Source of the DNA: Pseudobdellovibrionaceae bacterium | GTDB taxonomy: Bacteria; Bdellovibrionota; Bdellovibrionia; Bdellovibrionales; UBA1609 | Direction: 5' to 3' | DNA length: 64,000 nt | Assembly (NCBI GenBank): GCA_947444305.1 | Contig: CANEZP010000013.1 | Coordinates: 65,375 to 129,374 of the forward strand | Shown: piece after piece, positions 53,191 through 55,272 of the stretch | How the letters are laid out: every line of letters starts with the position of its first letter | Position numbering within the stretch: the first letter of the stretch is position 1 | Made by a program: the position numbers and the translations under genes | The notes under the pieces: model-generated | What the model saw: only the letters and a program-made list of their open reading frames with translations | Database searches by the model: none | What the model was told of the DNA's origin: nothing

Positions 53191-55272
53191 TTAAAACTTT
53201 AAAACTTCTAATCGTGGTTTCGGAATGTAAGTCCCGTCACCTTTGTACGCCGAGGCTAGTCCTAAATTCACGCCGACGACGTCTTCGTTAAAATGGTGAT
53301 GATGCGCTTCGGCCGGCGGCAACGCCTGAGCTTTTTCTTGGCTATCGACCAGCGAACCCGGCGGCACGAACTTGCCGTCGGGGATTTCGACACCTACGAC
53401 GATCGCGCCGATACCTACCGAGCAATGCGAACCGATAACCGCGTTGTGCACGACCGCTTTGAAACCTACGAACGTGTCGTCACCGATGAAGCACGGCCCG
53501 TGAATCAGCGCTTGATGCGCGAGCGAAACCCGCTCCCCAACGTAGATGGCCCACTTCTTCTCACCAACTTGCACCCACTGAGATTTCAGCGCGTGTAAGA
53601 CCACACCGTCTTGAATGTTGGTGTCGGAGCCGACGAAGAACGGCGTGCCTTCGTCGGCACGGAGCGCGGCTTCGCTCGCCACGTGAACGCGCGGCCCGAG
53701 CACGACGTGCCCGATTACCGAAGCGTTCGGGTGCACGAAGGCCGTGGGGTGCACGATCGGATCACTTTCGACGTGCGTTTGCCAATCTTCCTCGGGGGCC
53801 GCGAACATCGCCGGCGTTGGTTTTTGGAAATGATCGATGCGGCTGGCCGGTAGATGCGCGCGGATCCCGGGCGCTAACGCCGCGCCGGTTTTGCTCGCTT
53901 GACGGGCTTGGCGTTGCAACGAAACTCGCTTCTTCCACCAAATATCCAAGGCGGAAATCACGCCCGCCGCGATCAATCCTAAGCTCAAGTGACCGCTGAC
54001 CACGCCGGCCGCCGCCAGCACGAAAGCCAGAAACTGCACGCGGTTTTCCAGCAACAAATGTTTCATCGTTTCGAAATCGATGAGGCGAAAACCGATCAAG
54101 CACAACAGCCCGGCCAACGCCGCGACCGGAATCGAGCCGATCCAAACCGCCGCGAACAATGGTGCGACCAACAAAATGGTCGCGTGAGTGAGCGACGAGA
54201 GCCGCGAGCGGCCACCCGATTGAACGTTCACGCTCGACCGCACGATTACGCCCGAGACCGTCAGGCCCCCGAAAAAACCCGCGCCGAGGTTCGCAAGCCC
54301 CTGCCCAAGTGTTTCGAGGTTGGGCGCGTGTGGCTTTTCATTCGGCATCATCCGATCGACCGCTTGCGCGGACAAAAGCGATTCGGCCGTAGCTAAAATT
54401 GCGAGCGGAATGCACGCCACAAACAGATTCAACCACTGCATCAACGAAAGTTCGGGGAGCGAAAACACGGGTAAAGTGGCGGGTACCGCGCCGACGCGAT
54501 GTACATCCCAGTTCAGGTAGGTGGAGATTGCGGTGGCTAAAGTTAAGCCGACGATCGCGGCGGGAAACTTTTTGTAGCGCGCAAGCCCCAACATAAAGAG
54601 AATGACGAATAAACCCGCGAGCACCGCGAACCAATTCACGTCGCTCAACCAAACCGGCGCCGCGAGACTAAAAAACAATTCACTGACCTGGTGATCAACG
54701 TCCAAAAGCATGGGGATTTGCTGATCGAGCAGTTTCAAACCCACGCCGGTGACGAAGCCCCCGAGAACCGATTCGGGTACGAAGCGCGCCAAAGAGCCCG
54801 CGCGCGCGGCAAAGAAAATAAGTTGAAACACGCCCACCGCGATGGCGCCGGCGGCGGCCCCCGCCATGCCGAATTTGCTCACCAACGCGAATACTAAAAT
54901 ATTGAGCGCGGCCGCGGGACCCGTAACCTGCAAAGGTGCGCCGCCAAAAATCGCCGCGATCGCGCCGCCGACGGCACCCGCGATCAAACCCGCCGAAGCC
55001 GGCAATCCGCAAGCCACCGCGAGCGCAACGTTTAGAGGTAATGCCACCGCGGCAACCGTCAAACCGGCGACGACGTCTGAGCCCAGGCGTGCGTTACTGA
55101 AAGTGTCGCGCCAGCTGTCGCTCCAAATTTCAAAATCTTGTGCGTATTGCCCGATCACGCCTTTTTTAGCCGGTGTTCGCCGCAGATCGCGCCGGCTATA
55201 GCTGTTCCGAAGAATCTCGCGGTCTTGTAAATAGGATCTATTTTCTTCCGGGCGCAGCAGCTCGTTCATCAA
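53191..55272 (-). CDS. SulP-family anion transporter fused to a C-terminal gamma-class carbonic anhydrase (Cam/CcmM-like) domain
   Basis: 693 aa. SulP N-terminus and about 10-12 TM segments ([24 protein letters not shown]...). After a ~60-aa linker there is a left-handed-beta-helix domain, [26 protein letters not shown]...[12 protein letters not shown], carrying the three Cam zinc histidines. No STAS-sized segment is present. Confidence 0.85.
   Translation of the reverse strand: [693 protein letters not shown]

Follow-up and report, generated by a model that had tools for sequence, protein, structure and literature searches.

A 64,000-nucleotide stretch of a Pseudobdellovibrionaceae genome (contig CANEZP010000013.1, positions 65,375 to 129,374 of the forward strand; hereafter the window, from whose first letter all coordinates are counted) carries, at 53191..55272 on the reverse strand, a gene for a SulP/SLC26 transporter in which the usual STAS domain is missing and the C-terminus is formed by a gamma-class carbonic anhydrase (CA); two genes for membrane-anchored SPFH (Band-7) proteins follow directly downstream. 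We read these three genes, with a probability of roughly 0.65, as encoding a STAS-less SulP transporter-CA bicarbonate metabolon that is operon-linked to a heteromeric SPFH scaffold. The combination suggests that predatory bacteria possess a machine for handling bicarbonate that has not been described so far, and neither a gamma-CA fusion, nor the loss of STAS, nor a link between SulP and SPFH proteins was found in the full-text literature, where most subscription journals lie outside coverage. What is the significance of such an arrangement? SulP-CA fusions are the classic case of 'guilt by fusion' for bicarbonate transport by SulP proteins, and the occurrence of the same transporter lineage with an unrelated CA class therefore provides convergent evidence for that argument. 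Two further traits are unusual, namely that STAS has been discarded and that a dedicated SPFH gene pair accompanies the fusion. To our knowledge, the clients and functions of bacterial SPFH proteins beyond HflK/C-FtsH are largely unknown, and a genetically hard-wired scaffold-client pair would make the client question directly testable. The fusion also poses a structural puzzle, as a dimeric transporter is joined to an obligately trimeric enzyme, and the system may account for the handling of CO2, bicarbonate and pH by those Myxococcota and Bdellovibrionota that live as predators and burn amino acids.

The open reading frame (ORF) of 693 codons given in a preliminary description of the window is confirmed by the ORF list and by translation; it runs from a TTG at 55272 to the stop codon TAA at 53191-53193, and the peptides quoted there, [38 protein letters not shown] and [13 protein letters not shown], are all found in the product. 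ATG 55269, which would yield 692 residues, is nonetheless a likelier start than the TTG, because a ribosome-binding site (RBS; AAGGGTG) stands 5 nt ahead of it and because the database copy of the protein likewise has 692 aa. The protein falls into four parts, all encoded on the reverse strand: an N-terminal region of residues 1-60 (55093..55272), with the Arg/Lys-rich segment [12 protein letters not shown] and a helix at 39-59 in the AlphaFold2 (AF2) model; the SulP/SLC26 core of 14 transmembrane (TM) segments, residues ~61-447 (53932..55092), delimited by Pfam, Foldseek and sequence matches in the PDB; a linker of residues 448-496 (53785..53931), delimited by AF2, conservation and STAS searches; and a gamma-CA domain of the Cam/CcmM class, residues 497-680 (53233..53784), comprising a left-handed beta-helix (LbH) and a C-terminal helix. 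The AF2 model, built on 56 homologues, has a mean predicted local distance difference test score (pLDDT) of 87, with ~95 in the core and ~93 in the beta-helix. The preliminary description had taken the membrane domain for a normal SulP domain, and this is borne out by Pfam Sulfate_transp (PF00916), which matches residues 64-419 with an E-value of 1.7e-57 (195.3 bits against a gathering cut-off of 23.2), as well as by the 7+7 inverted-repeat fold of the 14 TM segments, which Foldseek superposes with TM-scores of 0.81-0.83 on BicA (6ki1) and 0.87 on SLC26Dg. The sequence of the core leads to the same proteins in the PDB (BicA 6ki1; SLC26Dg 5da0 and 5iof). Arg/Lys-rich flanks occur at either end of the 14-TM core ([29 protein letters not shown]), so that the positive-inside rule would place residues 1-60 on the cytoplasmic side and, combined with the established SulP topology, predicts that both termini, and hence the CA domain, are cytoplasmic.

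The assignment of the C-terminal domain draws on several independent comparisons. Pfam reports Hexapep repeats near the C-terminus, residues 490-677 match the NCBIfam models for the CcmM N-domain (6e-57) and for Cam ('carb_anhyd', 3e-56), and the C-terminal 213 residues align end to end with CcmM209 of Thermosynechococcus (3kwc, 1.9e-49) and with Cam of M. thermophila (1thj, 1qrg and others, ~2e-47), in keeping with the Cam/CcmM-type domain that had been placed at approx. 53194-53763. Identity to these two proteins is 43-45%; Foldseek lays the modelled domain on Cam with a root-mean-square deviation (rmsd) of 0.9-1.4 A, typically ~1 A, at 45% identity, and the left-handed beta-helix with its C-terminal helix reproduces the Cam fold. 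An acyltransferase-type LbH was considered and rejected, given that models for PaaY, CaiE and LpxD score at 1e-20 or weaker, as against ~1e-56 for the CA models, and that the catalytic residues are invariant; nor did Pfam detect the beta-CA family Pro_CA (PF00484) in the fusion. Cam-type gamma-CAs have their active sites between subunits, with H81 and H122 coming from one subunit and H117 from its neighbour. The zinc histidines with Cam spacing that had been recognized earlier are indeed the equivalents of these ligands: His560 (codon 53593..53595), His586 (53515..53517) and His591 (53500..53502) align to Cam His81, His117 and His122, respectively. Numbered through the same Cam alignment, the catalytic and second-shell residues W19, R59, D61, E62, N73, Q75, D76 and N202 correspond to W497, R538, D540, E541, N552, Q554, D555 and N669. 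All 11 positions, i.e. the three metal ligands and these eight residues, are invariant in 110 full-length homologues from two phyla and likewise in the curated set of 56. The CA domain is, moreover, better conserved than the TM core (median identity of 63% versus 54%), which is the pattern expected from selection on catalysis. In CcmM209, a C-terminal Cys pair presumably forms a redox-regulating disulfide that gates activity; the fusion contains no Cys after residue 660, so nothing of this kind argues against activity in the reducing cytoplasm. These sequence comparisons suggest that the domain is catalytically competent. What sets it apart is its context, since Cam is soluble and secreted, and CcmM, with its RbcS-like repeats, scaffolds the carboxysome, whereas the fusion tethers its CA to a membrane transporter; RbcS-like (SSUL) repeats are absent from the fusion, which ends 13 residues past the CA domain.

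The second defining feature is what the fusion lacks. STAS is a regulatory or interaction domain that is thought to organize and regulate SLC26 dimers, and SulP proteins usually carry it as a C-terminal cytoplasmic domain; here, only ~45-50 residues separate TM14 from the CA. Pfam finds neither PF01740 nor PF13466 in the fusion, and an iterated local STAS hidden Markov model (HMM) recognizes none of 121 members of the fusion family, as compared with 112 of 150 other SulPs. The preliminary description was thus right in denying STAS to the protein, although its linker of ~60 residues has to be shortened to about 45-50 (residues 448-496). In the AF2 model, the helix of TM14 continues into the cytoplasm up to about residue 461 and residues 463-494 are disordered (pLDDT <50); a STAS domain concealed in the linker is ruled out by this disorder together with the Pfam and HMM results. 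Within the linker there is a short motif, G-x-R-A-x-L (consensus G-x-R-A-V-L), at residues 466-470 (window 53863-53877) plus residues 471-473, of which R471 is kept in at least 90% of the 56 homologues, and at which the SPFH proteins or the core may dock.

Is this architecture a peculiarity of one genome? When 5.8 billion proteins were searched through a word index, more than 100 full-length relatives (about 660-710 aa) showing both Pfam matches were retrieved, annotated at their source only as 'SulP family inorganic anion transporter' or 'hypothetical protein'. Relatives also turned up in 359 genomes when one genome per GTDB species was scanned with a pattern, and the best 80 of these genomes underlie the locus counts given here and below; all 80 encode full-length fusions, 64 of them in Myxococcota (Archangium, Cystobacter, Polyangiaceae, Sandaracinaceae and others) and 10 in Bdellovibrionota (Bacteriovoracaceae, Oligoflexia). 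The family is widespread and not particular to one genome. With the sister clade as its root, the family tree unites the Myxococcota sequences in a clade (support 92) and divides those of Bdellovibrionota among three basal lineages, with the window's protein grouping with metagenome-assembled genomes of Bacteriovoracaceae and Oligoflexia (support 99). Only about 7 of 401 sampled Bdellovibrionota genomes carry the fusion, and it is missing from four further congeneric genomes. The gene appears to be old in both phyla and patchy in Bdellovibrionota. A recent transfer from Myxococcota is not supported, the window's protein belonging to a Bdellovibrionota lineage outside the Myxococcota clade; the GC content of the gene (0.585 against 0.543 for the window) is uninformative for an Ala/Gly-rich membrane protein.

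The origin of the fusion was traced with the core alone, used in an exhaustive HMMER search of 1.8 billion cluster representatives; the tails of the 150 nearest SulPs so obtained were classed by Pfam and local HMMs. STAS is present in 112 of the 150 representatives; as to CA, the arrangement SulP-STAS-beta-CA occurs 26 times and never without STAS, SulP-STAS-gamma-CA once (P0136), and gamma-CA without STAS in the few 50% clusters of the fusion family. A maximum-likelihood tree gathers the STAS-less gamma-CA family into one clade (SH-aLRT 100) on a long stem, and its sister clade consists of 22 SulP-STAS proteins (support 91), which fits the earlier proposal that STAS was replaced. Judged from this tree, the STAS-less gamma-CA architecture has a single origin, and its bearers are the only CA-fused SulPs among those sampled to have dropped STAS. 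Every CA fusion sampled falls into a 99-member superclade (SH-aLRT 99) and none into the other, 52-member clade, a split for which Fisher's test gives p 6e-11, a value that is overstated because the relatives are not independent.

Fusions of SulP proteins to beta-CA are on record (Felce & Saier, J Mol Microbiol Biotechnol 8:169, as cited in PMC11423575 and PMC5489568), with Rv3273 of M. tuberculosis as an example of the beta class (PMC6010129). They resemble the present fusion in joining a SulP core and a cytoplasmic C-terminal CA in one polypeptide, belong to the same superclade and follow the same bicarbonate-by-fusion logic; they differ in the class of their CA and in placing STAS between core and CA in all 26 cases sampled, whereas the fusion described here has a gamma-class CA, i.e. 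a trimeric LbH, and no STAS. The preliminary description had stated that the known fusions are of the beta type. This agrees with the literature and with the 26 sampled, but a gamma-CA joined to a STAS-bearing SulP exists as well, in Planctomycetota. These P0136-like proteins of Isosphaeraceae (~810-900 aa, ~33 clusters) end, as the fusion does, in a Cam-class gamma-CA, but they have kept STAS and branch separately at the base of the superclade, so that, by sequence, they look like the outcome of an independent fusion event.

The other half of the proposed system is encoded immediately downstream. SPFH_A (52329..53171, reverse strand), a 280-aa HflC-like Band-7 protein, starts at ATG 53171, 19 nt past the stop codon of the fusion gene and behind the RBS AAGGGG; SPFH_B (51414..52319, reverse strand), a 301-aa Band-7 protein resembling QmcA, stomatin and HflK, starts at ATG 52319, and its RBS, AGGTGA, is overlapped by the stop codon TAG of SPFH_A. 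Such spacing suggests that the three genes are probably co-transcribed and translationally coupled. When all neighbours in the window were compared by tblastn with the 80 related loci, SPFH_A was present in 78 of 78 and SPFH_B in 74 of 74 loci that reach far enough, those lacking either gene ending first; in the related loci the pair lies directly downstream of the fusion, on the same strand and with a median gap of ~5 nt, and no further neighbour is conserved. The association holds in the opposite direction, too. Scores of the SPFH_A profile in the 401 genomes of the phylum are bimodal, with six genomes at 305-411 bits, where each hit abuts a fusion, and 16 genomes at 128-150 bits, so that no orthologue scoring above 300 bits lies away from a fusion. 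The lower scores mark a different paralogue, a second SPFH_A-like class of 320-370 aa in genomes that lack the fusion, whose members may stand closest, among free-standing proteins, to the SPFH_A of the operon. Relatives that retain STAS, by contrast, were without SPFH neighbours in the five loci inspected: two planctomycetal gamma-CA loci (L085:5001-7538 and L086:5001-7514) and three myxobacterial loci of the sister clade, where no CA gene adjoined either.

Both proteins are assigned to the SPFH domain by PF01145 (SPFH_A, 6e-13, 49.6 bits; SPFH_B, 4e-18, 66.4 bits; cut-off 23.6). BLAST detects no similarity between them, whereas their family profiles are aligned by hhalign with 97.8% probability at 16% identity; a likeness visible only in profiles marks the two as ancient paralogues. 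The family profile of SPFH_A is closest to HflC (6e-15), and SPFH_B to QmcA, stomatin and HflK, with QmcA as its match in the PDB (9e-9). The AF2 model of SPFH_A (pLDDT 88.7) consists of a TM helix at residues 2-21, the SPFH domain, a 65-residue coiled-coil helix at 190-254 and a further helix at 258-279, and Foldseek matches it to the cage formers HflC/K, erlin 1/2, prohibitin 1/2, stomatin and QmcA; as modelled, SPFH_A has the cage-type SPFH fold. The operon thereby encodes two adjacent, TM-anchored Band_7 paralogues, like the HflK/C-FtsH, prohibitin 1/2, erlin 1/2 and stomatin systems (the last seen bound to aquaporin-1 in PDB 9zd2), in which divergent SPFH proteins likewise carry an N-terminal TM each. 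The pair does not reach the equivalog level of HflK and HflC, its best scores being 41.4 and 26.4 bits against cut-offs of 159 (TIGR01933) and 134 (TIGR01932), and the same genome harbours, on contig 7 at 153965-155468, a separate SPFH pair of 382 and 360 aa that is better HflK/C-like and likely represents the true HflK/C, as well as a 251-aa stomatin-like gene on contig 1. These genes exclude the operon pair as the housekeeping HflK/C and, since the HflK/C-like pair exists separately, the operon pair must be additional and dedicated. The N-terminal tails of both proteins are very short and uncharged or acidic, and Arg and Lys come right after the TM (R-x-x-F-R-V-E-E-G-H in SPFH_A; in SPFH_B, the stretch after the TM is richer in Lys and Arg than that before it in 65 of 74 homologues). 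With moderate confidence, the positive-inside rule thus predicts an N-out/C-in orientation with the SPFH domains in the cytoplasm, where the CA is expected too; this orientation is that of QmcA and differs from that of HflK/C.

Which anion does the core carry? Most likely HCO3-. A bicarbonate substrate is reasonable because the superclade of the fusion holds all 26 beta-CA fusions found among the 150 nearest representatives, and the best available argument for it is that this lineage took up CAs of two unrelated classes several times. In addition, the genome (4.17 Mb, 97% complete) contains no second Sulfate_transp gene, no DabA and no SbtA, and for this reason the fusion is its only recognizable candidate inorganic-carbon transporter; its other CAs are one free-standing beta-CA and one short CamH-like protein. 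BicA, a cyanobacterial Na+/HCO3- symporter of the same SulP family and the best structural and sequence match to the core, has the reverse composition, with STAS and without CA, and the BicA equivalog model scores 152.9 bits on the fusion, below its cut-off of 880 (NF050096). Site-residue comparison places E297 and R345 at anion-site positions of the core; R345, which is invariant and lies at the N-terminus of TM10, replaces a Gly of BicA and a Gln of SLC26Dg, yet it is common to all 150 nearest SulPs and therefore does not distinguish the family. Coupling to Na+ in the manner of BicA finds no support, as the Na+ ligands D258/T262/T302 of BicA (bioRxiv 10.1101/2022.06.08.495363) read E297/S301/I343 in the fusion.

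We propose that the system works as follows. A gamma-CA must trimerize to be active, its active sites being built from two subunits, and the CA domains would do so at the cytoplasmic face of the membrane, which a flexible linker of ~45 residues would permit. The trimeric CA would then interconvert CO2 and HCO3- directly where the SulP core, as a carrier of bicarbonate, opens inward, and keep the local substrate gradient steep, in the fashion of a transport metabolon. SPFH_A and SPFH_B, for their part, would alternate in a hetero-oligomeric ring or cage like those of HflK/C, prohibitin 1/2 and erlin 1/2, and this structure would corral, stabilize or gate the transporter-CA assemblies and thereby assume the organizing role of STAS; whereas the client of HflK/C cages is a protease, the candidate client here would be a transporter-enzyme fusion. 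The direction of transport by beta-CA-linked SulPs, import or export, is still open (PMC5489568), and both options can be envisaged for the fusion. In export, metabolic CO2 would leave as HCO3- with retention of H+, which would suit predators that burn amino acids and produce ammonia; in import, the system would feed carboxylases at low CO2.

Several observations weigh against this reading and have to be set against the evidence above. No sequence rule defines the substrate of a SulP protein, and, with the Na+ site of BicA not kept, the only structurally characterized bacterial SulP bicarbonate transporter is no close model. A cytoplasmic CA on an importer would dissipate a bicarbonate pool rather than build it. 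SulP dimers and gamma-CA trimers differ in symmetry, which would require either that the STAS-less core is not dimeric or that assemblies contain six or more chains, and the SPFH pair may serve to confine or stabilize these. The proton-shuttle residue Glu84 of Cam, together with its acidic loop, is deleted, and the fusion has K563 beside the vacant position in at least 90% of members; active CcmM209 has the same short loop and also lacks the acidic one. The orientation of the SPFH domains derives from the positive-inside rule only, and HflC, to which SPFH_A is structurally most similar, faces the periplasm. Finally, SPFH genes are not indispensable: genome G094, from the same phylum, encodes a 635-aa fusion, 48% identical to the window's, without them, so that the adjacency has one exception. 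The bicarbonate substrate, the activity of the CA, its trimerization, physical contact with the SPFH proteins and the cytoplasmic orientation of their domains are predictions.

How else could the data be explained? The core could transport something other than bicarbonate (sulfate, a dicarboxylate or a halide, for instance), with the gamma-CA acting in the place of STAS as a module that senses CO2, HCO3- or pH. It is a regulatory or interaction domain that has been swapped out, the core bears no sequence signature of bicarbonate transport, the Na+ site of BicA is lost, and among NCBIfam models DauA (5.6e-54) outscores BicA (1.1e-44). A sensor, however, would have no need of W19, E62 and N202, and what is invariant in the family is the whole catalytic apparatus and not just the fold; furthermore, the repeated gain of two unrelated CA classes by one superclade is most simply ascribed to a substrate related to CA. 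We therefore regard this alternative as unlikely. Far less probable still is that the LbH domain is catalytically dead and serves trimerization or scaffolding only, as the gamma-CA-like domain of CcmM does in cyanobacteria where a separate carboxysomal CA is used. Gamma-CA-like proteins without measurable activity are common, Glu84 is gone, and the scores stay under the equivalog cut-offs, with 190.7 bits against 380 for Cam (NF040597, model positions 47-245) and 193.3 bits against 550 for CcmM (NF053794, model positions 6-193 only). This shortfall arises largely because the models expect whole proteins, including the signal peptide of Cam and the RbcS-like repeats of CcmM, and a dead domain is hard to reconcile with the 11 residues kept across 110 sequences and two phyla or with the activity of the closest solved homologue, T. 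elongatus CcmM209.

A different kind of doubt concerns the SPFH pair, which might merely be co-regulated with the fusion, as a membrane-quality or stress module or as a protease partner, and form no physical scaffold. The resemblance of SPFH_A to HflC, which belongs to the best-known SPFH pair of bacteria and works with FtsH facing the periplasm, and the SPFH-free fusion of G094 speak for this possibility. It nevertheless seems improbable in view of the tight adjacency wherever it could be checked in two phyla while other neighbours vary, the confinement of SPFH_A orthologues to the vicinity of the fusion in 401 genomes, the genome's own HflK/C-like pair elsewhere and the absence of the pair from the five loci of STAS-bearing relatives inspected. 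A bolder version of the scaffold reading can also be entertained, to which we give little credence at present: the mismatch of two-fold symmetry in the transporter and three-fold symmetry in the enzyme could drive SulP-gamma-CA into hexamers or a cluster resembling a honeycomb, packed into a membrane patch that an alternating cytoplasmic cage of SPFH_A and SPFH_B encloses, creating a membrane-attached, semi-enclosed compartment for the conversion of CO2 and HCO3-. If true, a bacterial SPFH cage would for the first time have a transporter-enzyme fusion as its defined client, and carbonic anhydrase chemistry would be confined by means other than a carboxysome.

Some additional observations concern relatives of these components. 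In the SPFH-free locus of G094 (L090:3823-7043), the fusion is preceded, with a 4-nt overlap, by a gene for a 438-aa STAS-less SulP core, and the next gene, in convergent orientation, encodes a GGDEF protein; in G094, the bare core and the fusion may form a heteromer, and this variant hints that partner proteins offset the missing STAS in differing ways. The sister clade of the fusion family is myxobacterial (Archangium, Myxococcus, Corallococcus, Sorangium and others), and in all three of its loci examined (L087-L089, from Archangium, Sorangium and Myxococcus) a HAMP-HisKA kinase and a sigma-54-dependent response regulator are encoded divergently, which suggests a regulated anion uptake system unlike the fusion operon. 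Among gamma-CAs, three proteins each contain three complete Cam-class domains in tandem with His triads of their own, P0003 and P0004 behind a lipoprotein-like signal and P0008 behind an N-terminus resembling a signal peptide; from their sequences they look like single-chain pseudo-trimers. Two domains of this kind occur in P0071, a protein of ANME archaea.

As for the surroundings of the operon, a GC-rich hairpin with a T-rich tail at 55320..55339 (reverse strand), found by a consensus scan only, lies between the fusion gene and an upstream outer-membrane-like gene; it is probably the terminator of the latter and marks the 5' boundary of the operon. The upstream gene (55397-56377, reverse strand), which is not kept beside the fusion in other genomes, encodes a 326-aa protein with a signal-peptide-like N-terminus and a faint match to an autotransporter beta-domain (E 0.0065) and may specify an outer-membrane beta-barrel. 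At the opposite end, the 3' end of SPFH_B overlaps a convergent MarC-family gene (50775-51482) by 69 nt (window 51414-51482).

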